This document shows positions 213 to 62,775 of a stretch of DNA of 64,000 nt, piece by piece. The stretch lies in IMG/VR virus record IMGVR_UViG_3300049811_000196, positions 1-64,000 of that record. One strand, written 5' to 3'. Both the position numbers and the translations under genes were made by a program. The notes under the pieces are model-generated. The model worked only from the letters and a program-made list of their open reading frames with translations, was not told the origin of the DNA and did no database searches. Source of the stretch: a virus (lineage: Duplodnaviria; Heunggongvirae; Uroviricota; Caudoviricetes). Positions within the stretch are counted from its first letter, which is position 1, and every line of letters starts with the position of its first letter.

Positions 213-1178
213 ATGAAAAATAAAGAACAAATAATATTAGAAAAAAAGATCTTAAATGAAGATTGGATTGAGAACACATTAATGATTGCGGGATTTGTTC
301 CAATTCTTGGTGAGATAGCGGACATTGCTTTGATTATTTATTATTTAACCGTAAAGAAGGAACCATTATATGCGGTTATAATGTTGATCGCATTAATACC
401 AACCGTCGGTGATTTTATAGCAAAACCATTTATTAAGTTATTAAAAGGAAGTAAGGTTGTTTTAAAAAATAGTGATGATTTGGTTAAGTTTTTAAATACC
501 AATCCTAAAGCCAAAAAAATGTATGGTGATTTAGCTAAACATTTAGACAACCCAACACTAACAAAGGCAATTAATCAAACAGAAGAAATACCTAAAATCG
601 GTAAAACTGTTGCAAATGCGTTACGTGAAGGTGTTAATAAACATAAAGGAATATTTGCGAAAGTATTTGAAAAACCATTGGGTGTTACAAATGCAATTAA
701 AAAAGAATTTGGTGCTAACGCAAAAAGACCAATTAGTGCTGGGATAAAAAACTACTTTAAAACCCAAAGATTATCAAAGTACGTAGCCTCTAAAGGATAT
801 GCTCCCAAAAACTGGTTATCTAATTGGTATAATGTTGTATATAAAGCCAGAGGTGACAGAAGAAAATATATAAAAAGTTTTATTGTTGCAAATAATTTAT
901 TGGATTATTTTAATTTACCAAGCATCGAATCTTTTTGGGATAAATTTGAAAAGGACGAGAATTTTAGAGACGAATTAGCTCAAAATGAAAAATTTTCCGA
1001 CATGGTTAAAAATTCAACAGATGAACAAGATCTCGCAAATATTGAGGGTAATCAACAAGGTGGTTCTAATGAGAGTGGTGAAGATGGTGGTAATGACGGT
1101 TTGGGTACAATGATGATGGGGGGTATGGGAACAAAAATGGGTATAGAACTTTTGAAAAGATTAGCACAATTTACTTAG
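213..1178 (+). CDS. hypothetical protein, hydrophobic N-terminus, Gly-rich acidic C-terminus
   Basis: 321-aa ORF. Ends TAG then immediately TAA. Confidence 0.45.
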   Translation: MKNKEQIILEKKILNEDWIENTLMIAGFVPILGEIADIALIIYYLTVKKEPLYAVIMLIALIPTVGDFIAKPFIKLLKGSKVVLKNSDDLVKFLNTNPKAKKMYGDLAKHLDNPTLTKAINQTEEIPKIGKTVANALREGVNKHKGIFAKVFEKPLGVTNAIKKEFGANAKRPISAGIKNYFKTQRLSKYVASKGYAPKNWLSNWYNVVYKARGDRRKYIKSFIVANNLLDYFNLPSIESFWDKFEKDENFRDELAQNEKFSDMVKNSTDEQDLANIEGNQQGGSNESGEDGGNDGLGTMMMGGMGTKMGIELLKRLAQFT

Positions 1179-4065: not shown

Positions 4066-4079
4066 AAAAAACAAATAAT

Positions 4080-4411: not shown

Positions 4412-5040
4412 GTGGAGGTGTTGGGTTTCGACTTTTTTGGACTATCTCATCATCTTTTCAGATGTCGGACGCTCTTGATGGTTTTACGATAGAAGCGTCT
4501 ATCACCCATTAGTCTCTGCACCTTTTTCTTCCTACGAAACTTGGCTCAGGATTGTCTAAAATTAGATTTTCCCTGAATTCATCCGATTTTTCAATCAATA
4601 TTTCTATTGAAAGGGGCTCGATTTAACCCAAGTCTTGTCCGTTAACCAATAAATGGACTACACGTTTATTACAACATTGTTTCTCAATGTTCCGAAATAT
4701 TAGGTTTGATATTTGTGAGAACCCCACCTACAAACAACTTGGTCTCAGAATTATTTTAAACGAGCTCTGACCTGTCACTCGTATAACGGACTTCTGTTCC
4801 TGGGTTATATGTCCTAATCGACCCGAAGTAGAGCCCAACTTGGTTAGGCTACTACGTTAGAAGTTGCAAGAATACCTGCAGCTTCCATATTTGCGTAAAC
4901 GTTGCCGTTTGTTTTTACCATCGTAGTTTTAAGTCATAGATGATGTCTGACTACGTGCCCATTTATCAATCAAACGTCAATCAATTCCAGTCACCCCCAT
5001 TATGTCAAATAACTTATATATTAAATATAGAAAAAATTCC

Positions 5041-6497: not shown

Positions 6498-7967
6498 ATG
6501 GAGTTACATAAATTGTTGTTAGAGGAAACTGATGAGGACGTTGTATTAAACGCCCTTAAAGAGTTAATTAAGAATAGTGAGTGGGATGGTAAAGTCTATT
6601 TAGTTGGTGGTGCGGTTAGAGATGAAATAATGGGTAAGAAACCCAAGGATTTAGATTTTGTAGTAAATGGAGATCTCAATGCGGGGATTGATTTTTCTAT
6701 ATGGTTAGCAGAAAAACTTGGGAACCATAAGAAAGGTAGTAATCCCGTAGTATATCCAAGGTTTGGTACATCAAAACTTTCTCTTACAAACAATAATAAA
6801 GGTTTACCTGAAATTGAATTGGAATTTGTTGCTCCGAGAAGAGAAGAGTATGATGGTAAATCAAGAAAACCGAATGTTAGTGGTGGTGATTTAAAAGCGG
6901 AGGTCGAGAGGCGGGATCTAACAATTAATTCATTATTAAAAAATATTTCAAATAATGAAGTTTTGGATTTAAGTGGTTATGGGGTAAAAGATATTGAAAA
7001 CGGTATTATAAGAACTACTTCGGATCCTGATGTTATATTCAAGGAAGATCCTCTCAGGATGTTGAGAGCGGTCAGATTTGCGGTAAAATATGATTTTAAA
7101 TTCAGTACGGAGGTACTAAAGGGGATTAAAAAAAATGCTCATTTAATTAATAATATATCCTCTGAAAGAATTGCGGATGAATTAAACAAAATATTATTAT
7201 CACCAGATCCAAAGAAGGGTATACGATTATTAAAAGTAACTGATTTATTAAAATACGTTATTGAGGAATTTAATGATGCCATTGGTATGAAACAAAACCA
7301 GCACCATAAGGATGACGTTTTTATGCACACAATGGATGTTCTTTCAAAAACTCCTCCAGAGTTGAAAACAAGACTTATGGCGTTATTTCATGACATCGGT
7401 AAAGTTTTAACCAAAACCGTAACTCCAGAAGGGTCGGTTCATTTCTATAATCATGAGGAAGAAGGTGCGAAAATGGTTGAAACCATAATGAGAAGATTGA
7501 AATATCCAAATGAGTTAACCAAATCCGTGGTTTCTGGAGTTAGACATCACATGAGATTAAAACATGGTGGTGATGAAGGAAATGTTTCAGATAAGTCGTT
7601 AAGAAAATTTGTTGCGGCTGTGGGAGAAAATTTGGAAAATATACTGGATCTAATTCATGCGGATAACATATCACATTCAGAACATTCCTCAATGCCTAAT
7701 CAGATATCTAACATTAAAAAAAAGTTAGATACTTTGAATATGCAGTTGGATAAAAATAAACCGAAATTACCAATAAACGGTAATGATTTAATCGCAATCG
7801 GATTTAAACAGGGTCCAGAAATTAAAATTGCATTAAACGCTGTTGAAGAAGCATATTACGATGATCCAAATTTGGATAGAGAAACGGCAATAAACATTGC
7901 GAGATCAACTAAAGTCGATAAAGAGATAAATGAAATAAAAAATTTCATTTCTCGTATGATGGATTAG
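6498..7967 (+). CDS. cca: CCA-adding tRNA nucleotidyltransferase with HD domain
   Basis: LVGGAVRDEIMG...DLDFVV matches the Pol-beta head of CCA enzymes. HD motifs HHKDDVFMHT and LFHDIGK. Confidence 0.85.
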   Translation: MELHKLLLEETDEDVVLNALKELIKNSEWDGKVYLVGGAVRDEIMGKKPKDLDFVVNGDLNAGIDFSIWLAEKLGNHKKGSNPVVYPRFGTSKLSLTNNNKGLPEIELEFVAPRREEYDGKSRKPNVSGGDLKAEVERRDLTINSLLKNISNNEVLDLSGYGVKDIENGIIRTTSDPDVIFKEDPLRMLRAVRFAVKYDFKFSTEVLKGIKKNAHLINNISSERIADELNKILLSPDPKKGIRLLKVTDLLKYVIEEFNDAIGMKQNQHHKDDVFMHTMDVLSKTPPELKTRLMALFHDIGKVLTKTVTPEGSVHFYNHEEEGAKMVETIMRRLKYPNELTKSVVSGVRHHMRLKHGGDEGNVSDKSLRKFVAAVGENLENILDLIHADNISHSEHSSMPNQISNIKKKLDTLNMQLDKNKPKLPINGNDLIAIGFKQGPEIKIALNAVEEAYYDDPNLDRETAINIARSTKVDKEINEIKNFISRMMD

Positions 7968-37276: not shown

Positions 37277-37350
37277 TGGACACGGTGGGATTCGAACCCT
37301 ACGATAAGCCACTGGGTGGGGCCGGCAACCAACCACCGCATCGTGCCCAA
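37277..37350 (-). pseudogene. degenerate tRNA-like element
   Basis: Acceptor TGGGCAC/GTGTCCA and GGG-TTCGAAT-CCC. Other arms do not fold. Confidence 0.3.
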
Positions 37351-37419
37351 AATAATTTCGTGTCTGTAGAACCTATATATTTCTACACTTAGAGTTCTAA
37401 TGTAGGTTAGAACAACGTG

Positions 37420-37494
37420 TGGACCGAGTGGGTATCGAACCCACCTCACTCTCCTTGCAAGGGAGAATCGCCAATCCGTGGTACATGTCAGCCC
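37420..37494 (-). tRNA. tRNA-Ala (TGC)
   Basis: Acceptor GGGCTGA/TCGGTCC, including G-U pairs. Anticodon arm TCTCC-CTTGCAA-GGAGA. Weak D-arm. Confidence 0.65.
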
Positions 37495-37506
37495 AAAAAC
37501 AAAAAA

Positions 37507-37535
37507 CCTCGGAATTTTTTGTTCCGAGGTTTGTT
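37507..37535. terminator. rho-independent terminator hairpin
   Basis: cctcggaa tttttt gttccgagg followed by T's. Confidence 0.6.
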
Positions 37536-37798
37536 TTACTTAAAGATCTATGTTTTCTTAAATCTTTTCTGTATAAACAGTTCGGAACAAGGCAATATCA
37601 TCCTGCTTCGCCCATTCACAACGAATAATAAATGACATTTTATGTTGGTACTGTTTCATTTGAAAAATTTAAGTTTTATTTCTTTTACAAAGATATATAT
37701 AAATATTGTAAAAACAAACAAAATTCAAAAAATATTTTTTTTGTGTGGATCATTCCGGGATCGAACCGGAGACATGGACATTTATAATTATAAAATTG

Positions 37799-37870
37799 TG
37801 ATTCCAGTGGGATTCGAACCCACGTAAATACTTTTAGAGAGTACTGTTTTAACCACTAAACTATGGAATC
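37799..37870 (-). tRNA. putative amber-reading tRNA, anticodon CTA
   Basis: GATTCCA-TA-GTTT-AGTGGTTA-AAAC-A-GTACT-CTCTAAA-AGTAT-TTAC-GTGGG-TTCGAAT-CCCAC-TGGAATC-A. All arms canonical, U33, A37. Confidence 0.7.
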
Positions 37871-38572
37871 GAGTTTTTTAAATGCTTTTACCCATTTTCT
37901 GATTGAATTATCTGAAACACCGTATTTTTTTCCGGTACCAACATAACCTAAAACTTCAATATCATGTAATAAAGTCATATAATCTGGTCGAGGTACTTTT
38001 CTAAGGTGTTTGTTTTTATTAATGTGATGGTGAGCATCAAGTATTTTGGGTTCTTTCTTATTTTTTTTGTTTTTAATGTTTTTTCCGCAATGAGTTTCTA
38101 AAGTGGCATTACAATTTGGGCATAAAAATCTTAAGTTATTTAATCTATTATCATCATTAACGCCGTTTATATGATCTAAAATTAATGATATTTTTTTACC
38201 GTTCCATATTCCAATATTAGAACATAAAACACATTTATACTCCAATACGTTTTCTTTTATTATGCGTTTTTTTAAAGATGTCCTATCGTATGTTGAATTT
38301 TCAACTAACATGTCCAACATTGGTGTTTTATAACCATTGTTAGGATATTTCCGAAGAAAAGAACTATGATTTAAAAAATGGGATACATCAAATCCATTAT
38401 CCATAATCAATTTTTTAATTTTTTTATAATTACTTCCATTAATGTTCCAACCCAATTGAATCATTACATCTTTATAAGTTTCACTGTTTTTAATAATTTG
38501 CAATAAATTGTCCATATATGATAAATATGGACATATAATCAAAAAGGTTCGATGGTTCGAAAAAAAAAACAA
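37856..38572 (-). CDS. HNH homing endonuclease with C-terminal HTH
   Basis: DHINGVNDDNRLNNLRFLCPNCNATLETHC. C-terminal GTGKKYGVSDNSIRKWV. The 3' end overlaps the tRNA(CTA) 5' end by 15 nt. Confidence 0.8.
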   Translation of the reverse strand: MFFFSNHRTFLIICPYLSYMDNLLQIIKNSETYKDVMIQLGWNINGSNYKKIKKLIMDNGFDVSHFLNHSSFLRKYPNNGYKTPMLDMLVENSTYDRTSLKKRIIKENVLEYKCVLCSNIGIWNGKKISLILDHINGVNDDNRLNNLRFLCPNCNATLETHCGKNIKNKKNKKEPKILDAHHHINKNKHLRKVPRPDYMTLLHDIEVLGYVGTGKKYGVSDNSIRKWVKAFKKLDSIV

Positions 38573-38585
38573 TTTTTCAAAGAAC

Positions 38586-38609
38586 TAAAAAATTAGTGGT
38601 ATTTTCATA
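38586..38609 (-). terminator. hairpin plus T-run on minus strand
   Basis: ttagtggtat tttc ataccactaa, with a T-run downstream on the minus strand. Confidence 0.45.
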
Positions 38610-38789
38610 CCACTAATGATCCATTTGTGTAGTTTTACGACGTATCCAACTTTCGTCGAGGGTCTCAGTCACTATACTACACTCACCCTGTTACTTAGCC
38701 AAATCGTTCCCCATCCGGTGAACTGTCCACATCAGCCTATCATAGGTTTTAAGGACACCTGTGTTGGAGTTCCGATGCGAAGATAAGAA

Positions 38790-39149
38790 TTATTCAGAAT
38801 ATTCCAAATTTTTCATTATCTCATATTCCTCCTTGGATGTTTTCTTCTTGGGTTTCCATCCTCTTTCAATACGTTCTTTATTGATGATTTTTTTGTTTTT
38901 CCTTTCAATAAAGTAATTGATTAATTCCGTAGAACATTCTTTGTGGATTTTTTCGATTTGATCGAAAATCTCCGCCTTTTGTTTTTCGGTAAGAGGGTTT
39001 TTTTGTCTGTTATGTATTGCTGTCCAATACTCACGACTTCCTCTTTTTAATCCATAACAAGGATCTAAAAGTTTATGGATTTGATTTGAGAATTTCGATT
39101 TGATCATCATCGTTGGGTTATGTGATGATTTTTTTTGTGAATTTTTCAT
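38790..39149 (-). CDS. hypothetical basic protein
   Basis: 119-aa ORF. Confidence 0.4.
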   Translation of the reverse strand: MKNSQKKSSHNPTMMIKSKFSNQIHKLLDPCYGLKRGSREYWTAIHNRQKNPLTEKQKAEIFDQIEKIHKECSTELINYFIERKNKKIINKERIERGWKPKKKTSKEEYEIMKNLEYSE

Positions 39150-39234
39150 TTTTGTTTTTTTTAATTTAAGTTTATTTGTTTTCTAATTTTCAGTAAACAA
39201 AACTTAAGTCGGTCCTCGTATCTACTTCATGTTT

Positions 39235-39534
39235 TTAGTTTTTAAATAATAATGAAAGTTTATTGGTGAATTTCTTGGTTTCTTTTGTTTCAATAAAAGA
39301 AATGGATGTAAGTTGATTTCCTAGATCCGGTTCATAGAATTCGGACACAGGAATTCCTTCCATGTACAATTTAATCAATAAGTTTTGTAAATCTCGCTCA
39401 GAATTTATGGAAAGAGAAATAAGGTAATTATTATTCCATTTTTTGGCATCATCGGGATGATCTAAAAAAAACTGAGCGATTGCATGTCCCGTTTGTGCCG
39501 CCTGTGCTCCCAAGGGTAAATCTCCCCTTGTCAC
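39235..39534 (-). CDS. hypothetical protein
   Basis: 99-aa ORF. Confidence 0.35.
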   Translation of the reverse strand: MTRGDLPLGAQAAQTGHAIAQFFLDHPDDAKKWNNNYLISLSINSERDLQNLLIKLYMEGIPVSEFYEPDLGNQLTSISFIETKETKKFTNKLSLLFKN

Positions 39535-39643
39535 AGTAATTAATCTTGTAATCTACATATTTTTCATACCACAAATATACACCTTTTTTTATTAAAACAA
39601 AATATTTTTTATAATTTTTTTATTTCCGTTTTTTTCCTTATAA

Positions 39644-43525: not shown

Positions 43526-44683
43526 TCATTTTACTCTTTTATTCTTTTTTGTGATTAATGGTGTCTCATCTTTAATTTTAAACACATATTCAAGACTTGG
43601 TTTAATTTCTCCCATTAGAATTTGTTCGCTAATGAAATCTTCACATATGTTTTGAATTATCCGTTTTATCGGTCTTGCACCATATTCCTCTTGTTTATTG
43701 AGTTCAAAAATTCGGGTAATTACTGATTTATCAAATGTGATGTTATAGTCTTTCTCAGATAATCTATTATTCAATTTTTCAATCTCTTTGTCAATAATCG
43801 TTTTAAGTGTTTCTTCATTTAATGGATTGAATAGAATGATGTCATCAATTCTATTCAAAAATTCAGGATTAAACTGTTGTTTTAATGATTTTTCGATTAT
43901 TGATTTTCTTACTTCATATTTTTGATTTTCACTTGATGTCGTTGAAAACCCGATACCATTACCAAACTCGGAGACTTTTTTTGCACCCACATTTGATGTC
44001 ATTATAATAATGGTGTTGGTGAAATTTACCTTCCTGCCGAAAGAATCCGTCAAATGACCCTCATCTAAAATCTGTAATAAAATGTTATAAACATCTTTAT
44101 GAGCTTTTTCAATTTCATCAAAAAGAATGACTGAAAATGGATTGTTTTTAACTTTTTCAGTTAATTGCCCACCTTCTTCATGACCAACATATCCGGGAGG
44201 AGATCCAATTAATTTAGCAACGTTATGTTTTTCCATGTATTCGCTCATATCGACACGAATAATTTTATCCGGATCCCCAAAAAGTAATTCCGCCAAGGAT
44301 TTTGCTAAATACGTATTATGTGACAAAATTCCTGAAGTGTAATATCTATGGTTTGAATTTTCCGTTAATTCAAAATCATACATTGTTTCGCTTCGATTCA
44401 AATTCAAAATATGTTCAACCGATTCAAGACCAGTTTCGGTATAAATTAAATCACCGACATGTAAATCTTTAACAAATACTTCCTCCATGTTGTTATTAAA
44501 AACAATATGGGTGTCAGCACATTGCAAAACATAATTATTGGTTTTCAACTCCCAAACCTCATATGGTACTGTTTCATGTAACGCCTCAACATTTACAAAT
44601 CCATTGTCTGTTAATATTTCGTAATCACTTAAATTAAATGTCTTCGTTATTTTTCTTTCAATAGTCTCAGATAAAATTTCCAT
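43526..44683 (-). CDS. ClpC/ClpB-like AAA+ ATPase, C-terminal fragment (C-intein plus D2 domain remainder)
   Basis: After ...GILSHN comes TYLAKSLAELLFG...IRVDMSEYMEKHNVAKLIGSPPGYVGHEEGGQLTE...ILFDEIEKAH...MTSNVG, the Clp D2 sensor and Walker B region. Confidence 0.8.
   Translation of the reverse strand: MEILSETIERKITKTFNLSDYEILTDNGFVNVEALHETVPYEVWELKTNNYVLQCADTHIVFNNNMEEVFVKDLHVGDLIYTETGLESVEHILNLNRSETMYDFELTENSNHRYYTSGILSHNTYLAKSLAELLFGDPDKIIRVDMSEYMEKHNVAKLIGSPPGYVGHEEGGQLTEKVKNNPFSVILFDEIEKAHKDVYNILLQILDEGHLTDSFGRKVNFTNTIIIMTSNVGAKKVSEFGNGIGFSTTSSENQKYEVRKSIIEKSLKQQFNPEFLNRIDDIILFNPLNEETLKTIIDKEIEKLNNRLSEKDYNITFDKSVITRIFELNKQEEYGARPIKRIIQNICEDFISEQILMGEIKPSLEYVFKIKDETPLITKKNKRVK
44315..44683 (-). 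mobile_element. C-terminal part (123 aa) of a split mini-intein
   Basis: Block B-like CADTHIV. Block F MYDFELTENSNHRYYTSG. Block G ILSHN followed by extein Thr. Confidence 0.7.
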
Positions 44684-44703
44684 ATTTTTGTTTTAAATTT
44701 TAA

Positions 44704-45963
44704 TTACGAATTTAAGAAAATAATACAATTTTCTAACACTTTTTCTGGTGATTTTCTATAATCATTATCCCAAATAGTAAGAACTTGAAATCCTAAATTA
44801 TTAGCCGCTTCTATTTTTAATTTATCTTTTTCCCAAATTTGCTTTGCTGTTAAGGTTTTTCTAAATGGATGAGGAAAATCGTCTTCTACATATGTACGGG
44901 GATTTGCGTGGTACATATCACCATTATACTCAATAATTTTCATTTTTTTTAAATCGGTATAGTCATATAAATAAAAACTTGTATCAGTCTTGATTTTATA
45001 TTCTTCATTTTTTGTGGCAAACATTATGTTAATATGATGATTTATGTCTTCTAACTTTAAAATATCATAAAATAATTTTTGAGAAGATATCGAATAACCA
45101 AAACGCATATTTCCGTTTTGTGTTAAAGACTTATTCCATTTTATTTGTCTTTCACTAAATCTCCTCCTACCCTCTTCTTCACCATACTTTTCAATACAAA
45201 TATCGAGCGTAAATGTTTTTTGTCGTTGACTTACTTTGAGAACCGATTGTTCGTAAGTGTATCCTTGTTTTTCCCAATATTCTGTTCGAGTTGTTGATGA
45301 ACTAAAATATTTTTCAGGATTAAGTCCGCGTTTTAAAATATAATTTTCTGAATTTAATTTTTGAATTTTAGAAATATTAAGTTTTGCTTCTTGTTCGTTA
45401 TAACCACGTTTCAACCAATATTGAATTGAAAAATGTGATTTTGATGATAGGAAATCCATGATCTCTTTTTCACTCATACCTTTTTCACGCATATCATCCT
45501 TAGATAAAGATTTTCTATTCACAACTAATTTAGAAGATTTTTGTTGTTGTTTACTTATTTCTTGTTTCGCCCGCATCTCATCATACCCCTTAATAGTCCA
45601 ATATTCAACACACAACCTATTCCTTTTTTTTATTTCGATGTTTCTTTTACTGAGTATAGATTTAGCAGTACCCTCAGACCATCCACGTTCTAACCAGTAA
45701 TTGATATTACCATACTTTTTGGTTTTGAATTTATAGTTTTTTCTCAACCAATGAATTAATAAAGAAAATGACACCTCACCTTCATCATTGATTAACTTAG
45801 TATATAATCTATCATATTCCTCACAAAAACATTCATTACCTAAATTTTTATCAATTGTAATAATATGTGAAACAAATTCGTTGAATGTTGAAAAATAGTT
45901 TTTAGCGTCTATTTTTTTCTTTAAAAATTTTAAAACCACGATGATCTTACGTACTGTTGTCAT
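44704..45963 (-). CDS. free-standing DUF559/Vsr-like (PD-(D/E)XK) endonuclease with N-terminal DNA-binding repeats
   Basis: Four repeats of xYWLxRGYxExEAK type. C-terminal KIIEYNGDMYHA...GFQVLTIWDNDY. Confidence 0.65.
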   Translation of the reverse strand: MTTVRKIIVVLKFLKKKIDAKNYFSTFNEFVSHIITIDKNLGNECFCEEYDRLYTKLINDEGEVSFSLLIHWLRKNYKFKTKKYGNINYWLERGWSEGTAKSILSKRNIEIKKRNRLCVEYWTIKGYDEMRAKQEISKQQQKSSKLVVNRKSLSKDDMREKGMSEKEIMDFLSSKSHFSIQYWLKRGYNEQEAKLNISKIQKLNSENYILKRGLNPEKYFSSSTTRTEYWEKQGYTYEQSVLKVSQRQKTFTLDICIEKYGEEEGRRRFSERQIKWNKSLTQNGNMRFGYSISSQKLFYDILKLEDINHHINIMFATKNEEYKIKTDTSFYLYDYTDLKKMKIIEYNGDMYHANPRTYVEDDFPHPFRKTLTAKQIWEKDKLKIEAANNLGFQVLTIWDNDYRKSPEKVLENCIIFLNS

Positions 45964-45984
45964 TCGAAGACCAATTCGTTTATT

Positions 45985-47340
45985 TTATTTGGATTTACTG
46001 GTTTCGGACAGTATGTTATTTATAAATACTTCAATACTAACAGAAAACTCTTTGCCGGTAGATTTTTCTCTTAATGTTATATTAGAGTTTTTTGTAATAC
46101 ATTTACCCACCCCTGTTGATCCTAAAAATATAAAACTACCGATAGGTTTATTCCCATCTTTAATTCCAACCCTGTTTCTCCTAATCGCTTTAGCAATTAG
46201 AGAAATTGCTCCATCTTGTCCAATTACTTTTTTTGACAGAATTGTTTCAATTTTTAACAATTTTTCACTTTCTTTTGAATCCAGTTTAGATACGGGAACA
46301 CCAGTTATTTGGGTAATGATGTTATAAACATCCTCAATGGTTATAGGTGTTTTATTATTTTTTTGTTTTTCTTCCCATTTTTTCTTTTCCTCATCGAGCT
46401 TGAGAAGAATTTTTCTTTCGTCGTCTCTCAACTTTGCTGCCTGTTCATAATTTTGATTTTTGACAACTTGGAGTTTTTTCTCTTTTATCTCGTCAGATTC
46501 TTTTCTTAATTTTTCAATATGTTCTGGAATTCTGCTCGAAACTTTCTTTTCAGATCCGAGTTCATCCAAAATATCAATGGCTTTATCAGGAAATTGTCTA
46601 TCGGTTATGTACTTATGACATAACTTAACAATGGTTTCAATAACCTCATTTTCATAAGTGACTTTATGGAAAGTCTCGTATGATTTTTTGAGATTTTTTA
46701 AAATATCAATGGTTTCATTTACGGTTGGTTCTTTTAATATGATTTTTTGGAACCTTCTAACCAAGGCTCCGTCCTTTTCTATATGTTTTTTAAATTCGTC
46801 AAACGTTGTTGCACCAATACATTGTATTTCACCCCTTGCCAATGCTGGTTTTAGGATATTTGCGGCATCCATAGACCCACTCGCATTACCAGCACCAACC
46901 ATTGTGTGTAATTCGTCAATAAATACAATAACATTCGGAGCTTCCTGTAATTCATTTAAAATAGCCTTTATTCTTTCTTCAAATTGTCCCCTATATTTTG
47001 TTCCCGCAACAATAGATGTTAAATCGAGGGACACTATTCTCTTGTCCAATAAGTTATTGGGACATTCCCCCTTGTGTATCATTAAAGCCAGCTTCTCAAC
47101 CAATGCGGATTTACCAACACCCGCATCACCAACAATAACGACATTGTTTTTTTTCTTCCTTGATAATATTTGTGCAATCCTTTTTACTTCACCATCTCGA
47201 CCAATTACAGGGTCTATCTTACCTTCTTCCGCTAATTTTATTAAATCTCTCGAAAAATTATCAAGTATCGGTGTGTTGGAACCCTTCTTAATTTTTTTAG
47301 GATTTAATGTTTGACCTTCTTCATAAAATTCTACAGACAT
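45985..47340 (-). CDS. ClpC/ClpB-like AAA+ ATPase, N-terminal fragment (D1, UVR-like middle region, start of D2) plus 38-aa N-intein
   Basis: GDAGVGKS. CIGATTFDEFKKHIEKDGALVRRFQKI. NYEQAAKLRDDERKIL. VIGQDGAISLIAKAIRRNRVGIKDGNKPIGSFIFLGSTGVGK, then CITKNS... in place of the Walker A Thr. Confidence 0.8.
   Translation of the reverse strand: MSVEFYEEGQTLNPKKIKKGSNTPILDNFSRDLIKLAEEGKIDPVIGRDGEVKRIAQILSRKKKNNVVIVGDAGVGKSALVEKLALMIHKGECPNNLLDKRIVSLDLTSIVAGTKYRGQFEERIKAILNELQEAPNVIVFIDELHTMVGAGNASGSMDAANILKPALARGEIQCIGATTFDEFKKHIEKDGALVRRFQKIILKEPTVNETIDILKNLKKSYETFHKVTYENEVIETIVKLCHKYITDRQFPDKAIDILDELGSEKKVSSRIPEHIEKLRKESDEIKEKKLQVVKNQNYEQAAKLRDDERKILLKLDEEKKKWEEKQKNNKTPITIEDVYNIITQITGVPVSKLDSKESEKLLKIETILSKKVIGQDGAISLIAKAIRRNRVGIKDGNKPIGSFIFLGSTGVGKCITKNSNITLREKSTGKEFSVSIEVFINNILSETSKSK
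45988..46101 (-). mobile_element. N-terminal part (38 aa) of a split mini-intein inserted at GVGK|T of the D2 Walker A
   Basis: Cys1 replaces the P-loop Thr. The ORF stops after ...NILSETSKSK. The downstream fragment restarts MEILSETIERK, so ILSET is duplicated. Confidence 0.7.
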
Positions 47341-52636: not shown

Positions 52637-54415
52637 ATGAATAGGAAAATTGAACAGTTAAAAGAGTATGCAAAAATCATCAAAGACACACCATATGCTT
52701 TAAAAACATATCTCCAAACATATGATAATACTCAAAGAAAATATGTTCCCTTGGATTTATTTGAAGATCAAATTCAATTAATCGAAGATTATGAAACCTA
52801 TAATGAAAACATTACAAGAAAATATAGACAAGCGGGTGTAACAACAGTTACAGCAGCTTGGGTTTCTAAGGTTCTGCAAACAGCAAAGGAAGAAAAACCT
52901 GAAAGAGTACTGATTGTTGCCAATAAACGCGATACCGCGATTGAAATGGCGAATAAAATAAGAAACTTTCTTGAGCAATGGCCAGAGTGGATTAATGTTG
53001 GATTTGATCCCGGAAAAAATTCTGAAAGTAGATTTAGGTTAAATAATGGATGTGAGGTTAAAGCGGTAGGTACGTCTGCGGATGCTCTTCGTGGTTATAC
53101 CCCCACTATTCTTATATTAGATGAAGCGGCATATATTGAAGCCGGAGAAGATTTCTGGGCGGCATCTATGGCGTCACTTTCAACTGGTGGTAAAATTATT
53201 CTCATATCAACTCCACAAGGATTTGACCCAATATATTACGCAATATATGATCAAGCGTTAAGGGGATTAAATGATTTTCATATTACAGATCTACGTTGGT
53301 TTAAAGACCCAAGATATAATAAAGATTTAAGGTGGGTTAAGTGTAGTGATATTGTTCATTATATGTTAAACAGAGAACAATATAACGATGATGAAGTCAC
53401 ATTTTGGGATTTTGACTTAAAAAACTATCAACAATATTTGGAAGAAGGGTATAAACCATATTCAAGTTGGTTTGAATCCATGTCCAAAAAATTCAAATAC
53501 GATAAACGTAAAATAGCTCAGGAACTTGAGGCAGATTTCCTCGGATCTGGAGATGGTGTTATCCCAAGTGATTTCCAAGATAATATTGCAAAAAATATGA
53601 TTAGAGTTCCCATTGAAAAATATATGCAAGGAACTGTTTGGCAATGGAAAGAACCAGTTGCTGGTCATAGATATATAATGGGGGTTGACGTAAGTAGAGG
53701 AGATAGTGAGGATTTCTCAGCCATTAATATAATCGATTTTGATGATCGGGAACAGGTCTTAGAATACATTGGTAAAATACCCCCCGATGATTTAGCAGCT
53801 ATTGCATATAAATGGGGAATACTATATGGGAACGCATTTATAGTTACTGATATTACAGGAGGTATGGGCATTGCTACTTCAAGAAAATTACAAGAATTGA
53901 ATTATAAAAATTTATTCATAGACGGTATCAATACACAAAACATTTGGGAATATAATAAAAAAATTATGGAGAAAATTCCCGGAATAAATTTTAATAACAA
54001 AAGAACACAAATAATCGCATCATTTGAAGAACATGTTAGAAAAGGATTTGCTATAAGGTCTGCTAGATTATTAAATGAGTTAAGTACGTTTGTTTACATA
54101 AACGGAAGACCCGATCACATGAAGGGTTCACATGACGACGCAATTATGAGTATATCGATGGCTATTTATGCCGGAGACATCTCTTTTAATCAATTGGAGA
54201 GAGCATCATCACAAAATAAAGCCATTTTGGATTCTTGGGCTTTATCTGAAAGAACATATGAACCAAACAAAAGTTTCTATTCGTATGGAACAAGTTTAGA
54301 TCCAATCGGGTCGATGTTCGCGGGAAATAATCGATTAATTAACGACGTTACCCCATATGATAACCCAAAAGAGGCTTATCAGAAGTATTCTTGGCTATTT
54401 AAAAAACCGAAATAA
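52637..54415 (+). CDS. terminase large subunit (T4 gp17-like)
   Basis: 592 aa. ATPase segment ILILDEAAYIE. Nuclease-like C-terminal MGVDVSRGDSEDFSAI...HDDAIMSISMAIYA. Immediately upstream of portal. Confidence 0.8.
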   Translation: MNRKIEQLKEYAKIIKDTPYALKTYLQTYDNTQRKYVPLDLFEDQIQLIEDYETYNENITRKYRQAGVTTVTAAWVSKVLQTAKEEKPERVLIVANKRDTAIEMANKIRNFLEQWPEWINVGFDPGKNSESRFRLNNGCEVKAVGTSADALRGYTPTILILDEAAYIEAGEDFWAASMASLSTGGKIILISTPQGFDPIYYAIYDQALRGLNDFHITDLRWFKDPRYNKDLRWVKCSDIVHYMLNREQYNDDEVTFWDFDLKNYQQYLEEGYKPYSSWFESMSKKFKYDKRKIAQELEADFLGSGDGVIPSDFQDNIAKNMIRVPIEKYMQGTVWQWKEPVAGHRYIMGVDVSRGDSEDFSAINIIDFDDREQVLEYIGKIPPDDLAAIAYKWGILYGNAFIVTDITGGMGIATSRKLQELNYKNLFIDGINTQNIWEYNKKIMEKIPGINFNNKRTQIIASFEEHVRKGFAIRSARLLNELSTFVYINGRPDHMKGSHDDAIMSISMAIYAGDISFNQLERASSQNKAILDSWALSERTYEPNKSFYSYGTSLDPIGSMFAGNNRLINDVTPYDNPKEAYQKYSWLFKKPK

Positions 54416-54448: not shown

Positions 54449-57433
54449 ATGGCTGATAAAAATTTAACAGTATTTCAAAGGTTAACTAAAATGTTTGGTT
54501 TTCCTGGTGAAGTTAAACAGGAAAAACAATCACCTAGATTTGAATTTAACAAAGATCAAATACTAAAAACAGATAGCATAGAAGATTATGAAAAAGCTCG
54601 TCTTCAAGCGCAGCAAACACAATACATTGTAGATAAGTGGGCAAAATTAGATCAATCTTTATATAATCAATCTGTATATTATGAACCAAACAGATTGGCG
54701 GCATATTATGATTACGAATCTATGGAGATGTGTATTTTGGGGGACACAAAAATAGCAACTCCTGATGGTTTTGTAACCATTAAAGAATTAGCAGATAGGG
54801 GGAGAGATTATGAATTTATAACATATGCATATGATCATAATCTTAAAAAAGTAGTTCCTGCTATAGCTAGAAATGCCCATTATACGAGAGATGACATGAC
54901 CTATAAGATTACTTTCGATGATGGTTCTCACATTATTGCGACAGAAACCCATAGATTTTTAAAAAGAGATGGTGTTTTTGAAGAACTACGAAATTTAAAG
55001 GTTGGTGACTCAATGATGCCGTTTTATAGAAAATCATTCTATAATAATCAAAATTATAATTGGGTCTATGTATGTAATTCAAAAGAAGGACATAACGGAT
55101 GGGTTCCTGAACATAATTTAATTGCGGAATGGTATTTTAAGAAGAAAATAAATAAAGAAGAAGAGGTTCACCATATTGATTTTAATGGTAAAAATAATCT
55201 ACCATCTAATTTGTTGATAATGGATAGATCTGAACACCGATCTTTTCACGCAAAGATAAATAATGAAAAATTATGGTCAAATCCAAAGTATAGATTATTA
55301 ATGTCGGAAGTCGCAAAAAGAAAGGGTAAATATAATTGGAATGGTAAGAGGAAGGGTAAAAATAATCCTTCGTACATCGATATTTCATTTAATGAAATTA
55401 TCGAGGTTTCAAAAATACATAGAACTCAAGAAAAAACTGCAAAACATTTAGGAGTGTCTGTTGCAAAACTACAAGATGAACTAAAATTAAATGGTTTTAA
55501 AAATTGGGATTTATTTTTGGATGTTTACGGTATTAAAAAATTAATTCCACAAACGGAAAATAGAGAATCAATAAATTTTAAACATGTTCCTTGGGATTTA
55601 ATTATTGAATCTGCTAAAAAATATAAATCAATACGCAAAACATCTGATTTTATTGGTATAAGTAGATCTAAATTAATGTCATCATTAAGAATGAACGGTT
55701 ATAAACGATGGGACACTTTTTTAGATGCATATGGAATAGAAAAGTCGAAAATAGGTAGAGATATAAAACATGATAAAATAACCATTAATCATAAAATAGT
55801 ATCTATCGAACCATATGGAGTATTCCCCGTTTATGATTTGACTGTTCCAGGGTATAAAAATTTCGCAACAGACACTATTTTTTCCCATAATACCCCCGAA
55901 ATATCCGCAGCTTTGGATATATACGCAGAAGAATCTACTGCGGTATCTGAAAAGGGGGAGATATTGACAATATTTTCTGAATCGGATAGGATTAAAGAGA
56001 TTTTAACGGATTTGTTTGTTAACAAATTAGACATAAATACAAATCTACAGATGTGGGCTAGGGGTATGTGTAAATACGGGGATAATTTTGTTTATTTAAA
56101 AATAGATCCGAAAGAAGGTATCGTTGGATGTCAACAACTTCCAAATATTGAAATAGAGAGGTGGGAAGGAACTGGAACAAAAACACCAACTCAAAATGAT
56201 ATCAAGTCTCCGGTTAGAGAATTGAGATTTAAATGGAATAATAAGGATTTGGAATTTCAGTCTTGGGAAATCGGTCATTTTAGACTTTTAGGTGACGATA
56301 GAAAACTTCCATATGGTACGTCAATGTTGGATAAAGTTAGAAGAATTTGGAAACAACTTCTTTTAGCTGAGGATGCTATGTTGATTTACAGAACCAGTAG
56401 AGCACCTGAACGTAGGGTCTTTAAAGTATTTGTTGGTAACATGGACGATAAAGATATTGAACCCTATATACAACGTATTGCCAATAAGTTTAAGAGAGAT
56501 CCTATTGCTGACCCAAAAAACGGTCAAGTTGATATGAGATATAATCAAATGGCTGTTGATCAGGATTACTTTATACCCGTAAGAGATCCGTCACAAACCA
56601 ATCCGATTGAAACTTTACCGGGTGCTCAGAACTTGGGAGAAATTGCGGACATAGAATATATTCAGAAAAAATTATTAACTGGATTAAGAATACCTAAAGC
56701 GTTTCTTGGATTTGAAGAAGTTGTGGGTGATGGTAAATCTTTGGCTTTAATGGATATCAGATTTGCGAGAACCATTAATAGAATACAAAAATCATTAATT
56801 CAAGAATTAAATAAGATTGCATTAATGCATCTTTATTTATTGGGTTTAGAAGATGAACTAGACAATTTTTCGTTATCCTTAACTAACCCATCCGCACAAT
56901 CCGATCTATTAAGAATAGAACAATGGAAAGAAAAAATTGCGTTATATAAAGACGCAACATCAGATCAATCCCAATTAGGTATTTTACCTGTTTCCCATAC
57001 TTGGGCAAAAAAGAATATTTTAGGAATGAGTGATGCTGAAGTTATTCTTGATTTACAACAACAAAGATTGGAAAGAGCAATGGGATTTGAGTTAACAAAT
57101 ACCCAAAACGTGATTAAAAGATCTGGTGTATTTGATGAGGTCGATTCGAGGTATGGTATACCAGAAGAAGAAAGAAAGAAATTAGAGGCTCAAAACTTAA
57201 ACGCCGATAACGATATGAACCCCGGCGGTGGATTAGATATGGGTGGCGGAGCACCACCTCCTCCGGCAGAGGGTGGAGGAGGAGAACCCCCCCTAAGTGA
57301 ATCCTTAAAAAAACATAAATTATTTACCTTAACCGAAGGAACAAACTTAGAAGACTTGTTTGATATGGAAAAGGCTCAACAGAATATTTATGAAATAGAA
57401 AACAAGATAAATAATATTTTAAATGATAAATAA
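54449..57433 (+). CDS. portal vertex protein (T4 gp20-like) containing an intein
   Basis: 994-aa ORF. Extein about 607 aa. Contains a Hint domain with HNH (see intein feature). Confidence 0.8.
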   Translation: MADKNLTVFQRLTKMFGFPGEVKQEKQSPRFEFNKDQILKTDSIEDYEKARLQAQQTQYIVDKWAKLDQSLYNQSVYYEPNRLAAYYDYESMEMCILGDTKIATPDGFVTIKELADRGRDYEFITYAYDHNLKKVVPAIARNAHYTRDDMTYKITFDDGSHIIATETHRFLKRDGVFEELRNLKVGDSMMPFYRKSFYNNQNYNWVYVCNSKEGHNGWVPEHNLIAEWYFKKKINKEEEVHHIDFNGKNNLPSNLLIMDRSEHRSFHAKINNEKLWSNPKYRLLMSEVAKRKGKYNWNGKRKGKNNPSYIDISFNEIIEVSKIHRTQEKTAKHLGVSVAKLQDELKLNGFKNWDLFLDVYGIKKLIPQTENRESINFKHVPWDLIIESAKKYKSIRKTSDFIGISRSKLMSSLRMNGYKRWDTFLDAYGIEKSKIGRDIKHDKITINHKIVSIEPYGVFPVYDLTVPGYKNFATDTIFSHNTPEISAALDIYAEESTAVSEKGEILTIFSESDRIKEILTDLFVNKLDINTNLQMWARGMCKYGDNFVYLKIDPKEGIVGCQQLPNIEIERWEGTGTKTPTQNDIKSPVRELRFKWNNKDLEFQSWEIGHFRLLGDDRKLPYGTSMLDKVRRIWKQLLLAEDAMLIYRTSRAPERRVFKVFVGNMDDKDIEPYIQRIANKFKRDPIADPKNGQVDMRYNQMAVDQDYFIPVRDPSQTNPIETLPGAQNLGEIADIEYIQKKLLTGLRIPKAFLGFEEVVGDGKSLALMDIRFARTINRIQKSLIQELNKIALMHLYLLGLEDELDNFSLSLTNPSAQSDLLRIEQWKEKIALYKDATSDQSQLGILPVSHTWAKKNILGMSDAEVILDLQQQRLERAMGFELTNTQNVIKRSGVFDEVDSRYGIPEEERKKLEAQNLNADNDMNPGGGLDMGGGAPPPPAEGGGGEPPLSESLKKHKLFTLTEGTNLEDLFDMEKAQQNIYEIENKINNILNDK
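54731..55891 (+). mobile_element. 387-aa intein with HNH endonuclease and two HTH modules
   Basis: Starts CILGDTKIATPDG (block A). TETHRF (block B). HNH EVHHIDFNGKNNLPSNLLIMDRSEHRSFH. HTH KTAKHLGVSVAKL and SDFIGISRSKL. Block F VYDLTVPGYKNFATD. Block G IFSHN followed by T. Confidence 0.8.
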
Positions 57434-61053: not shown

Positions 61054-62775
61054 ATGGGAGCATTATTAGAATCAGGTATGGTTGGTAACATTGGCTTAAA
61101 GCACTTACGTGTTATCAAAGAAGATACCATTAAAAAATGGGATGAGTTAGGTTTCCTTGAGGGACTTGACGGTCATCAAAAAGATAACATTGCACAATTA
61201 TATGAGAACCAAGCCTCATATTTGATCAATGAAGCCGCAGTGGCTGACGCATCAGGTTCATTTGAAACTGTTGTGTTTCCAATCATTAGGAGAGTTTTCT
61301 CCAAATTATTGGCGAATGACATCGTATCTGTACAAGCCATGAACTTACCAATTGGTAAATTGTTCTACTTTGTACCTAAAATTCAGGACAGAAATGCGGG
61401 AGCTCACTGGTCACCATATGGTTATCCAAGTGTATCAACTAACCCAGCAGAAGGTTATACTGATGTAAGAAACCTTTATGATCGTTTCTATGAGCAATCA
61501 GATGATGCCGATCAAGGTCTTTTCGACTACTCAAAAGGTGATTATACCACAGTATCTTTAACAGGTACGTCACTTGTTACTTTCTCTAGTGGTGTTGAAA
61601 GTGCATTTACTGGTGCAACTGGTACATCATTAAGTTCTGTAATTCTTAAACTTACTGGTTTTTCAAAATTAGGTCAAGGAAAATTAGCTGGTCCTGACGG
61701 TAACGAAATGGATACAGAAGAATTCTTGGCTTCATTACAAGTAAGTTCTGCACAAGTACAGGGTGGAGCATCATTACCATTCAATGTGGTAACACAAAAA
61801 TATGGTAAAGGTATCGTAGCATACGGACAAAAATCCGCAGGTACTAATGGAAACTTATTCCAAGACATCTGTGATGAAGACGGTGTTATCTATTTAAATG
61901 TTGATTTAGAAAGTTACAATAGTGCATCAGGTTTTACTAGTTACACAGTTACTGGTTCAACATTAATTGGTACTGACTTCGTTGCAACATATCGTAGATA
62001 TGATACCTTAGAATTCGAAGATCAAATTGGTGAGGTTTCTTTCGATTTGGAATCTGTAACGGTTTCCGTAACTGAAAGAAAACTTAGAGCAACCTGGTCT
62101 CCTGAATTAGCTCAAGACGTTAGTGCATTCCACAACATCGATGCTGAGGCAGAATTAACAGCTCTTCTTTCTGAGCAAATCGCAGCAGAAGTTGACCGTG
62201 AAATTCTTCGTGACCTTAGAAAAGGTGCGGCATGGAAAGCTAAGTGGGATTACAACGAATGGAAGTATGGTAACGGTGGATCAGCATATGTTGGTTACAC
62301 TCAAAAAGACTGGAACCAAACGTTAATCACCAAGATTAACCAACTTTCAGCTCAAATCCATAAAACAACCTTGAGGGGTGGAGCTAACTGGATCGTTGTT
62401 TCTTCTGAAGTTTCAGCGGTATTCGATGACTTAGAGTATTTCCACGTATCAAACGCTCATCCTGAGCAAGATCAATACAACATGGGTATTGAGAAAATTG
62501 GTACTCTCGCTGGTAGATATCAAGTTTATCGTGACCCTTACTTCCCAGCAGGTAAGATTTTGATCGGACATAAAGGTAAATCATTGCTTGATGCTGGTTA
62601 TGTATACGCACCATATGTGCCATTACAATTAACCCCAACAATGTTCAATCCGTTCAACTTCACACCCATTAAGGGTATCATGACCCGATACGCTAAAAAG
62701 ATGGTTAACAACCGTTATTTCGCGGTTATCGATGTCAAAGGTATCGTAACATACGATTTGAATACCTTGAGATAA
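61054..62775 (+). CDS. major capsid protein (T4 gp23-like)
   Basis: C-terminal LLDAGYVYAPYVPLQLTPTMFNPFNFTPIKGIMTRYAKKMVNNRYFAVIDVKGI parallels gp23 DAGIYYAPYVALTPL...FKTRYG...YFRRVYVKGI. 573 aa. Confidence 0.9.
   Translation: MGALLESGMVGNIGLKHLRVIKEDTIKKWDELGFLEGLDGHQKDNIAQLYENQASYLINEAAVADASGSFETVVFPIIRRVFSKLLANDIVSVQAMNLPIGKLFYFVPKIQDRNAGAHWSPYGYPSVSTNPAEGYTDVRNLYDRFYEQSDDADQGLFDYSKGDYTTVSLTGTSLVTFSSGVESAFTGATGTSLSSVILKLTGFSKLGQGKLAGPDGNEMDTEEFLASLQVSSAQVQGGASLPFNVVTQKYGKGIVAYGQKSAGTNGNLFQDICDEDGVIYLNVDLESYNSASGFTSYTVTGSTLIGTDFVATYRRYDTLEFEDQIGEVSFDLESVTVSVTERKLRATWSPELAQDVSAFHNIDAEAELTALLSEQIAAEVDREILRDLRKGAAWKAKWDYNEWKYGNGGSAYVGYTQKDWNQTLITKINQLSAQIHKTTLRGGANWIVVSSEVSAVFDDLEYFHVSNAHPEQDQYNMGIEKIGTLAGRYQVYRDPYFPAGKILIGHKGKSLLDAGYVYAPYVPLQLTPTMFNPFNFTPIKGIMTRYAKKMVNNRYFAVIDVKGIVTYDLNTLR

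Follow-up and report, generated by a model that had tools for sequence, protein, structure and literature searches.

In the crAss-like and Lak phages that use genetic code 15, suppressor tRNAs accompany the recoding of TAG in late genes (Borges et al. preprint 10.1101/2021.08.26.457843; Peters et al. PMC9523058). This recoding has been proposed to regulate expression (10.1101/2021.08.26.457843; PMC9523058), and a standard-code relative with an acquired suppressor tRNA has been put forward as a possible precursor of it (Borges et al. preprint 10.1101/2021.08.26.457843). The locus described here resembles these systems in having a phage tRNA(CUA) that would read an in-frame TAG in a host of standard code, and in its low GC content. 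It differs in that one small gene would be recoded in the DNA examined, with the stop located at codons 2-5 and the tRNA linked to its target, while TAG remains the normal stop for 9-16% of the genes and the late genes are not recoded.

The jumbo phage XacN1 uses the standard code and has a suppressor tRNA without an identified target (PMC5852040). The Stenotrophomonas siphophage Summit is likewise reported to have a suppressor tRNA, the standard code and no identified target (PMC9022506). Both phages are like the present one in having tRNA(CUA) within a large tRNA set, code-11 genes and an encoded peptidyl-tRNA hydrolase; the two reports give neither a target nor a link between tRNA and hydrolase, whereas a conserved candidate target codon is identified here.

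The prfB gene encoding RF2 has an early in-frame UGA that is passed by a +1 frameshift and senses its own product directly. Like the gene studied here (PTH2-L), it is termination-related and has an early in-frame stop whose fate decides its synthesis; the stop of PTH2-L is proposed to be read by a dedicated tRNA, and its feedback is hypothetical. ORFs of 2-5 codons ending in a stop are a classic source of peptidyl-tRNA drop-off, generating the substrate of Pth, and the bar minigenes of phage lambda are free-standing and toxic in Pth-deficient hosts. A similar mini-ORF is present here, but it is fused in frame to a Pth2-like gene.

We consider it probable (about 0.7) that the tRNA(CUA) described below is the functional UAG-decoding half of a phage-only module, whose other half is the amber-gated PTH2-L gene, and that it licenses the translation of that gene. 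The full-text literature, the coverage of which is incomplete, gave no publication that connects a suppressor tRNA or an in-frame amber codon to a Pth or Pth2 gene of a phage; the pairing seems to be without prior report, which is not proof of novelty.

The tRNA(CUA) gene and the genetic code of the window

The window (the whole 64,000-nt stretch that was analysed) belongs to a T4-like large phage. Its tRNA(CUA) gene and the principal protein genes found by Pfam are located as follows:

37799-37870, minus strand: tRNA(CUA), a canonical elongator-type cloverleaf with loop CUCUAAA, discriminator A73 and no encoded CCA (ARAGORN and Rfam RF00005)
61054-62775: gp23 capsid protein (Pfam)
54449-57433: gp20 portal protein with an intein (Pfam)
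52637-54415: large terminase, TerL (Pfam)
6498-7967: CCA-adding enzyme, ending in TAG (Pfam)

A split ClpB-like ATPase (Pfam) is also present, as are a GOLLD RNA and a group I intron at 4432-4635 (Rfam). No close relative of the phage was found among GenBank phages; IMG/VR contains hundreds of capsid relatives with 67-87% identity.

ARAGORN finds 27 tRNA genes in the window, all on the minus strand and located from 13.9 to 37.9 kb, and tRNA(CUA) is the first of this array along the direction of transcription. The program calls it at 37798-37870 (minus strand) with anticodon cta, and labels it 'Pyl' because of the anticodon alone. The Rfam tRNA model RF00005, which has a gathering threshold of 29 bits, matches the gene over its full length with 73.4 bits (E 3.6e-14) and zero non-canonical pairs, the top score among the 21 Rfam tRNA matches in the window. 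The first-pass annotation had described a canonical 72-nt cloverleaf with loop CUCUAAA at 37799-37870 and an amber-reading tRNA; ARAGORN and the covariance model bear out the fold, and the anticodon and its loop are those of a genuine amber-reading tRNA. That annotation gave no strand; the gene lies on the minus strand.

From its 5′ terminus the RNA reads GAUUCCA in the acceptor stem, UA, then GUUU AGUGGUUA AAAC in the D arm, A, the anticodon arm GUACU CUCUAAA AGUAU, the 4-nt variable region UUAC, the T arm GUGGG UUCGAAU CCCAC and finally UGGAAUC A. The D-loop comprises 8 nt with G18G19, and the tRNA is further canonical at U8, A14, U33, A37 and in its T-loop UUCGAAU. The anticodon CUA of an amber suppressor is thus held in a 7-nt loop, with U33 on one side and a purine at position 37 on the other.

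A tRNA-Pyl would have a small D-loop lacking G18G19, a single base separating its acceptor and D stems, a T-loop of non-canonical form, a 3-nt variable loop and a 6-bp anticodon stem. This identity is ruled out by G18G19 in the D-loop AGUGGUUA, the presence of U8-A9 and the T-loop UUCGAAU; the sole tRNA-Pyl-like trait is an optional A26-U44 pair. No isoacceptor match stands out among the 26 other tRNAs of the window and 145 tRNAs of relatives, the best being a Gln tRNA with 51/72 identities. From general U35-based recognition the inserted amino acid might be guessed to be Gln or Lys. An origin from tRNA-Arg(UCU) was considered, the T-arm and acceptor being shared with loci L049 and L052 and the loop differing by a one-base register shift; it was dropped because the search pattern itself had dictated the shared part, and because the anticodon stems are different. 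Exact-match searches of IMG/VR with the anticodon arm, the 5′ half, and the T-arm plus acceptor gave chance matches or none, and the T-arm pattern gave zero matches in genome contigs.

Theta ribozymes are HDV-like, self-cleaving and abut the 3′ end of phage tRNAs (PMC10879173). The scan of the region 3′ of tRNA(CUA) with the Rfam models, at E up to 10, gave no match to an HDV-like ribozyme. The downstream fold is not unusually stable (z -0.24), and another structured RNA at this place found no support either.

ORFs cover 0.84 of the window under code 11; when TAG is made a sense codon the coverage is 0.87, which is the same as the TGA control. TAG terminates 11 of the 75 ORFs, including the two at 213..1178 and 6498..7967 that had already been noted from the sequence, and these 11 genes have no backup tandem stops (median extension 17 codons). 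No real genes split by TAG were found in the window, and code 11 leaves the capsid, portal and terminase genes intact, in line with what had been stated of the structural genes at first pass. A TAG-recoded (code 15) genome is ruled out for the 64-kb window, since TAG is still a stop and there is no gain in coverage beyond the TGA control. Among the loci carrying PTH2-L (see below), TAG accounts for about 9% of stops without protective tandem stops. One of these carriers, L125, contains 21.7 kb of late genes at 95% coding density, with no in-frame TAG and no gain from TAG-sense translation.

These properties bear on a first alternative, in which tRNA(CUA) serves general or stage-specific readthrough, with recoded late or lysis genes lying beyond the window, or the sabotage of host termination; the Pth2-like gene would then be one of many targets, or a clean-up enzyme. 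The late-gene recoding of crAss-like and Lak phages provides a precedent (Borges et al.), a PTH2-L homologue in Lak-A2 has a same-strand tRNA(UUA) about 740 nt away, and the 64 kb visible are part of a probably much larger genome. However, a count of in-frame TAG codons in the late genes of the window (gp23, gp20 and TerL) and of L125 gave zero, and TAG stays a normal stop in the carriers, so that we regard this alternative as unlikely. Stage-specific readthrough and interference with host termination were the roles suggested in the first-pass annotation; as main roles they find no support in the late genes or in the unprotected TAG stops of the carriers.

PTH2-L and the stop codon of its leader

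The gene encoding PTH2-L lies upstream of tRNA(CUA) and on the same strand, with the following features:

39235..39567, minus strand: PTH2-L gene, encoding a divergent Pth2-family protein, 110 codons from the upstream ATG including the in-frame amber
39556..39567, minus strand: four-codon leader ATG AAA AAT ATG (MKNM), preceding the amber
39553..39555, minus strand: in-frame TAG, codon 5 of PTH2-L and proposed target of tRNA(CUA), followed by ATT (+4 base A)
38790..39149, minus strand: 119-aa ORF between PTH2-L and tRNA(CUA), kept only in a T4-like subset of carriers (21 loci)

The 119-aa ORF has no match in Pfam or PHROG. The ORF listing gave PTH2-L only from a GTG start at 39534 (39235-39534, minus strand), and the first-pass annotation missed the codon-5 TAG as a candidate target, 1.4 kb upstream of the tRNA and on the same strand.

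As a single sequence PTH2-L scores 20.4 bits against Pfam PTH2 (PF01981), which is under the 23-bit cut-off, while the profile of its family matches M. jannaschii Pth2 (PDB 2zv3) over the full length with E 4e-8. Using an AF2 model (pLDDT 75.6), the 11 best PDB matches in Foldseek are all Pth2 chains, with TM 0.65-0.71. PTH2-L belongs to the Pth2 peptidyl-tRNA hydrolase fold, as a divergent member. The catalytic residues of characterised Pth2 enzymes are a Lys and an Asp. The Lys, within the GKGK motif, is not conserved in PTH2-L: at its position the window has Ala, and the consensus has Tyr. The Asp is aligned with an invariant Glu (E68). PTH2-L resembles archaeal and eukaryotic Pth2 (PF01981; PDB 2zv3, 1xty, 1q7s) in profile, fold and a conserved GHA motif, and in having an acidic residue opposite the Asp; it differs in that the catalytic Lys is not conserved, in its own set of invariant residues (W33, N36, Y37, E68-P69-D70 and T76) and in being found in viruses only. 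A survey of 185,579 bacterial and archaeal species genomes gave no member of the family, and by this distribution it is exclusively viral.

The 5′ end of the gene reads ATG AAA AAT ATG TAG ATT ACA AGA TTA ATT ACT GTG (MKNM#ITRLITVTR), so that a UAG to be decoded lies in frame at codon 5, two residues ahead of the first beta-strand of the Pth2 fold. No other window ORF of 80 or more codons has a leader of the form ATG-(1-4 codons)-TAG. The design is near-universal among the homologues, comprising an ATG, one to three codons, a stop, I or V, and then x-(K/R)-L-V-T-V-T-R; an in-frame ATG is present 1-4 codons ahead of the stop in 55 of 61 distinct contexts. The leader stop and the anticodon of the neighbouring tRNA were tallied over these 61 distinct gene-start contexts:

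TAG stop with CUA anticodon: 47/61
TAA stop with UUA anticodon: 2/61
TGA stop with UCA anticodon: 1/61, the weakest case, with the tRNA on the opposite strand and 2.3-2.9 kb away
TAG stop, no tRNA found: 10/61
TGA stop, no tRNA found: 1/61 (L232), with the stop 35 codons upstream and probably not equivalent
Mismatched stop and anticodon: 0/61

Among the 10 TAG contexts with no tRNA in the fetched flanks, some loci are truncated and some hold tRNAs missed by ARAGORN. Within these contexts the leader stop is shown to co-vary with the neighbouring anticodon across phage lineages. From the stop to the conserved core there is no ATG, GTG or TTG in 55 of 59 contexts. The +4 base across 59 contexts is A in 37, G in 20, C in 2 and T in none, and is thus a purine in 57; classical work established a purine after the stop as a context that favours suppression.

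The same contexts can be set against a second alternative, in which the short TAG-ended ORF is an ordinary upstream leader acting by translational coupling or start-stop, PTH2-L starts independently, and the tRNA is nearby for unrelated reasons, such as membership of a translation-gene island. The mycobacteriophage homologues have a leader of just ATG TAG, and the GTG next to it is the annotated start; these phages may thus be able to do without suppression at this gene. ATT or ATA, which are rare start codons, stands next to the stop in 34 of the 61 contexts, but in 23 the codon at this place is a non-start codon (GTA, GTT, ACA, ACT, AGA or AAG). Nor would an ordinary leader explain why the stop tracks the anticodon, with TAA opposite UUA twice and TGA opposite UCA once, or why TAG is the leader stop in 57 of 61 contexts in genomes where it makes up about 9% of stops, a frequency at which chance is no explanation. 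We consider this alternative highly improbable.

In public protein records a Q is present at the position of the stop, solely as a result of gene calling under code 15; in the DNA the codon is a stop, and tRNA(CUA) is present in those genomes too. Current annotation consequently either truncates PTH2-L, by starting after the TAG, or mistranslates it, by reading Q.

Pairing with the tRNA among phages and its possible meaning

A profile-guided scan of IMG/VR gave 274 PTH2-L relatives, and the best 80 loci were examined for tRNAs. A same-strand tRNA(CUA) lies within about 2 kb in 62 of these best 80 (of 274), and a tRNA(UUA) in 2 of 80. Together with the window, L048, L055, L236 and L237 they make up 69 loci that were analysed with such a tRNA. 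In all 69 the CUA or UUA tRNA is on the same strand as PTH2-L, at a median distance of 782 nt, and its position is upstream in 36 and downstream in 33. After clustering the proteins at 90% identity the tRNA is present in 46 of 56 clusters; four more clusters derive from truncated loci, and at least two further clusters hold tRNA(CUA) genes overlooked by ARAGORN. In several PTH2-L loci the suppressor is the sole tRNA present, which argues against a chance neighbour in an island of translation genes.

The converse was found in 35 relatives located through a neighbouring 350-aa protein, which have tRNA arrays without a PTH2-L ORF. The CUA anticodon is absent from all of their 145 tRNAs. In the metagenome contig L048 a tRNA(CUA) with the T-arm and acceptor stem of that in the window adjoins a homologue of ORF 39235-39534 (minus strand). 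The pair is also present in cultured cluster C mycobacteriophages: in Mycobacterium phage IkeLoa (Bixzunavirus) a tRNA(cta) lies 250 nt after a gene annotated as 'peptidyl tRNA hydrolase', and the arrangement in Phabba is the same. The idea is therefore directly testable.

A search of IMG/VR with the consensus CUA anticodon arm gave 120 loci, 49 of which have PTH2-L within 4 kb, always on the same strand. Among the other 71, 21 have no PTH2-L despite adequate flanks and 50 are not judgeable, so that some 30% of consensus-type tRNA(CUA) loci with adequate flanks are without PTH2-L nearby. At one of these 21 loci, L244, the same amber leader precedes a canonical PTH2. The tRNA(CUA) of RAS14 and Phosso is located elsewhere and does not adjoin a PTH2-L gene. 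The tRNA may therefore have further roles, and these loci lend something to the alternative of general readthrough; that alternative leaves unexplained, however, why the stop lies at codons 2-5 of one family and why TAA takes its place precisely in the loci with a UUA anticodon. Beyond these two genes the neighbours are lineage-specific, and none of their proteins accompanies the pair throughout. Judged by its distribution, tRNA(CUA) with PTH2-L is a conserved, phage-only two-gene module.

The tRNA family was compared using 50 distinct orthologues with CUA or UUA anticodons, all of which have short variable loops. Pairing in the stems is maintained by 3-6 pair types at each position, with the exception of one invariant T-stem pair. 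The anticodon arm is strongly conserved, comprising G30-U31, CUCUAAA and A39-C40, and the loop CUCUAAA is kept in 38 of the 50. This is the pattern that would be expected of tRNAs selected for ribosomal stop decoding. The acceptor stems vary widely, and the discriminator is A in 30, U in 14, G in 5 and C in 1 (n = 50); no single synthetase identity is therefore indicated.

The most likely role of tRNA(CUA), from the arrangement and conservation of the two genes, would be to decode the amber of the neighbouring PTH2-L, and it appears to serve mainly this one deliberate TAG at the start of the gene. Ribosomes starting at the leader ATG would reach the UAG carrying only a tetrapeptide. Either RF1 would release the tetrapeptide, or tRNA(CUA), having been processed, CCA-tailed and charged by a host synthetase, would insert an amino acid and the hydrolase would be made. 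The early stop would thus sense how suppressor tRNA and release factor are balanced, much as the prfB UGA senses RF2. PTH2-L would most likely cleave an acyl or peptidyl ester at tRNA 3′ ends, its substrate being either peptidyl-tRNA generated at stop codons or the loaded suppressor itself. Discharge of the loaded suppressor would provide a negative feedback, keeping readthrough of ordinary TAG stops low. We infer the actual decoding, the enzyme substrate and the feedback.

Several observations are awkward for this model. A terminator-like hairpin and the HNH gene part the two partners in the window, the 11 ordinary window genes that end in TAG have no backup tandem stops, the catalytic Lys of PTH2-L is not conserved, and 10 TAG loci have no tRNA in their flanks.

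A third alternative assigns the pair to stop-codon-specific rescue or termination. The tRNA would take the chain off stalled stops and the hydrolase would free it from peptidyl-tRNA(CUA), in replacement of a limiting release factor, with the early amber tuning expression. A cognate suppressor normally continues elongation after peptide transfer, however, and no Pth enzyme is known to reach ribosome-bound peptidyl-tRNA with a long chain; the missing catalytic Lys of PTH2-L also counts against such a device. In its favour are the family of the partner protein, the phage tmRNAs in the same arrays (L048 and L057), the tolerance of TAG stops in the carriers, and L048, which encodes a canonical PTH2 alongside PTH2-L and so suggests a specialised job for the latter. 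On balance we give this third alternative only an outside chance. A module mimicking the specificity of RF1, restricted to CUA and UUA, was also considered; it is weakened by the TGA-UCA case and has no mechanism.

Amber decoding of PTH2-L could be part of a more elaborate arrangement, in which the module is a natural, portable translational logic gate or governor made up of the tRNA and the amber-gated Pth2 gene. In this private one-codon code, synthesis of the hydrolase would report on the level of suppressor tRNA relative to release factor, and the hydrolase would discharge the suppressor or stop-codon peptidyl-tRNAs. We advance this tentatively, as something short of an even chance. If true, the phage would have a self-regulating circuit of tRNA and protein such as has until now been built only synthetically, and this would explain the stop-reading tRNAs of standard-code jumbo phages and might seed full recoding.

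On the reading that tRNA(CUA) licenses PTH2-L, the recurrent suppressor tRNAs of standard-code phages for which no target was given would acquire a specific conserved target and a partner protein. At least 46 distinct phage lineages contain the pair, and dozens of large-phage lineages in which it is conserved otherwise follow the normal genetic code. It would be a natural example of tRNA-gated expression with a co-evolving codon and anticodon, and a plausible first step to full stop-codon reassignment. Suppression would be linked to peptidyl-tRNA hydrolysis, suggesting an unrecognised layer of phage control over translation termination.

The HNH gene between PTH2-L and the tRNA

Between PTH2-L and tRNA(CUA), and just downstream of the latter, the window contains an endonuclease gene and what are probably the remains of an older tRNA:

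38623..38700, minus strand: conserved leader of 78 nt, with 82% identity to L055 1593-1670, which directly precedes the tRNA(CUA) of L055
38610..38622, minus strand: probable 5′ remnant of an older tRNA (GGAUCAU UA GUGG), at a position that appears homologous to the start of the L055 tRNA
38592..38617, minus strand: terminator-like hairpin and T-run, between the PTH2-L and 119-aa genes and the HNH gene
37856..38572, minus strand: HNH homing-endonuclease ORF (phrog_10822, E 3e-45), between PTH2-L and tRNA(CUA)
37746..37785, minus strand: probable 3′ remnant of an older tRNA, T-arm and 3′ acceptor strand (..AUAAA UGUCC AUGUC UCCGG UUCGAUC CCGGA AUGAUCC A)

The last 15 nt of the HNH ORF overlap the 5′ end of tRNA(CUA), an overlap already reported at first pass, and its TAG stop forms positions 13-15 of the tRNA. 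The distance from PTH2-L to the tRNA is 1368 nt in the window, compared with 508-956 nt in close relatives that do not have the HNH gene; the longer spacing results from its insertion between the two. A group I intron carrying the HNH gene was rejected, there being no Intron_gpI match in 37350-39300 at E up to 10; the same model does detect the intron of the window at 4432-4635.

The 7-nt acceptor strand of the 5′ remnant is complementary to AUGAUCC of the 3′ remnant, and the latter is matched, in truncated form, by an Rfam family that runs antisense to tRNA (17.7 bits, E 0.07). Joining the remnants at all junctions rebuilt no normal tRNA, and the middle of the older tRNA has therefore been lost. 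The present tRNA(CUA) is more similar to the L048 type than to the tRNAs found in the closest PTH2-L relatives. From this arrangement it seems that an older tRNA gene at the site was broken up by an HNH cassette that brought its own tRNA(CUA).

The overlap with the HNH gene and the tRNA-like remnants on its flanks, together with the lack of clear kinship to any isoacceptor in the window or its relatives, could suggest that tRNA(CUA) derives from a sense tRNA by anticodon mutation and is neutral or in decay, or that it is the cargo or homing site of the endonuclease, in either case without a role in translation. The 50 orthologues already contradict this: they keep CUA or UUA and the anticodon arm while their stems co-vary. 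Since, in addition, the gene is the best-scoring tRNA of the window and most orthologous loci are without HNH, we attach next to no weight to this last alternative.

SegB of phage T4 is a free-standing homing endonuclease in a phage tRNA region. The window likewise has an endonuclease gene wedged into its tRNA region, with signs of allele replacement; the case for homing here consists of the tRNA remnants and the HNH-less relatives. A homologous HNH gene occupies the same intergenic slot in L161, in the opposite orientation.

Putative amber-gated genes and related features at other phage loci

In the arrangement that we term amber-gated, a short ATG leader runs into an in-frame TAG, proposed to be read by a neighbouring amber-reading tRNA(CUA), and the protein core follows. 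The loci compared with that of PTH2-L, the divergent peptidyl-tRNA hydrolase 2 (PTH2) protein of the window, contain the following features.

L244, 4557–4982 (+): canonical PTH2 gene (Pfam E = 3.5e-25), leader ATG AAA GAA TTG TAG GTT
L260, 5416–5790 (+): ORF of 122 aa starting ATG CGT TAG, directly 3′ of tRNA(CUA)
L289, TAG at 2603 (−): counterpart of the same ORF type, also starting ATG CGT TAG
L048, 5916–6368: canonical PTH2 gene, not amber-gated, beside the divergent PTH2-L
L048, 2829–3184: phage-encoded tmRNA
L057, 10306–10708: phage-encoded tmRNA
L238 (Prevotella phage Lak-A2, a TAG-recoded megaphage), 3189–3261 and 4001–4201: tRNA(UUA) and PTH2-L homologue

The leader of the canonical PTH2 in L244 is of the same kind as the amber leader of PTH2-L, and a tRNA(CUA) lies on the same strand 3.4 kb downstream. 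With both elements present, predicted amber gating is not confined to the divergent subfamily and extends to this canonical PTH2. The ORF of L260 and L289 is distinct from PTH2-L, its sole Pfam match being a weak one to 2OG-Fe(II) oxygenase, and may represent a second family of amber-gated tRNA(CUA) neighbours. In Lak-A2 the tRNA(UUA) is located ~740 nt upstream of the PTH2-L homologue on the same strand; a clear ATG-x-stop leader was not seen in the N-terminal region of the homologue. Both tmRNAs share an array with the tRNA(CUA)/PTH2-L pair.

Surroundings of the tRNA(CUA) gene

38623–38700 (−): leader of ~80 nt, 5′ of the (ancestral) tRNA(CUA) start; counterpart at about 1593–1665 of L055
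37746–37785 and 38610–38622 (−): pair of tRNA-like remnants whose acceptor strands are complementary

The leader is 82% identical between the window and L055, two phages that have diverged elsewhere, and conserves the stems GUGUAGU/ACUACAC and GACG/CGUC. No Rfam match to window positions 38623–38700 was found. The remnants bracket a cassette comprising the HNH homing-endonuclease ORF and tRNA(CUA), an arrangement suggesting that an older tRNA gene was replaced here by endonuclease-mediated insertion.

The tRNA array, an RNA-repair-type protein and a CCA-adding enzyme

13897–37494 (−): tRNA array covering all 20 amino acids
33978–34466 (−): protein of RNA-repair type with a HAD domain (HAD_SAK_2, E = 3e-24), within the array
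6498–7967 (+): CCA-adding enzyme gene, terminated by TAG

Over-long tRNAs occur in the array for Ile (97 nt), Lys (91 nt) and Met (85 and 82 nt), and some anticodons carry A34 (Gly-ACC, Ser-AGA and Arg-ACG). tRNA-Arg(UCU) is absent from the array and present in most relatives. In relatives L015–L017, the tRNAs predicted by ARAGORN as 'Leu' and 'Tyr' have a short variable arm, unusual for bacterial-type tRNA sets. Most phage tRNAs of the window, including tRNA(CUA), lack an encoded CCA. Many of the TAG-terminated genes are small ORFs lying between tRNAs.

Other RNAs, inteins and split genes

10115–10529 (−): full-length GOLLD RNA (Rfam RF02032, 326 bits)
4432–4635 (−): group I intron match (79 bits, exceeding the gathering score)
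54449–57433 (+): T4-type portal protein gp20 with an intein bearing an HNH_3 endonuclease domain
43526–47340 (−): ClpB-like ATPase as two ORFs
45985–47340 (−): first ClpB-like ORF, with AAA domain, lid and UVR motif
44704–45963 (−): separating ORF of 419 aa, with a weak DUF559 endonuclease match
43526–44683 (−): second ClpB-like ORF, with AAA_2 and D2-small domains

The distal end of the tRNA array lies ~3.4 kb away from the GOLLD RNA. The first ClpB-like ORF and the 419-aa insert share one frame, with a TAA between them.
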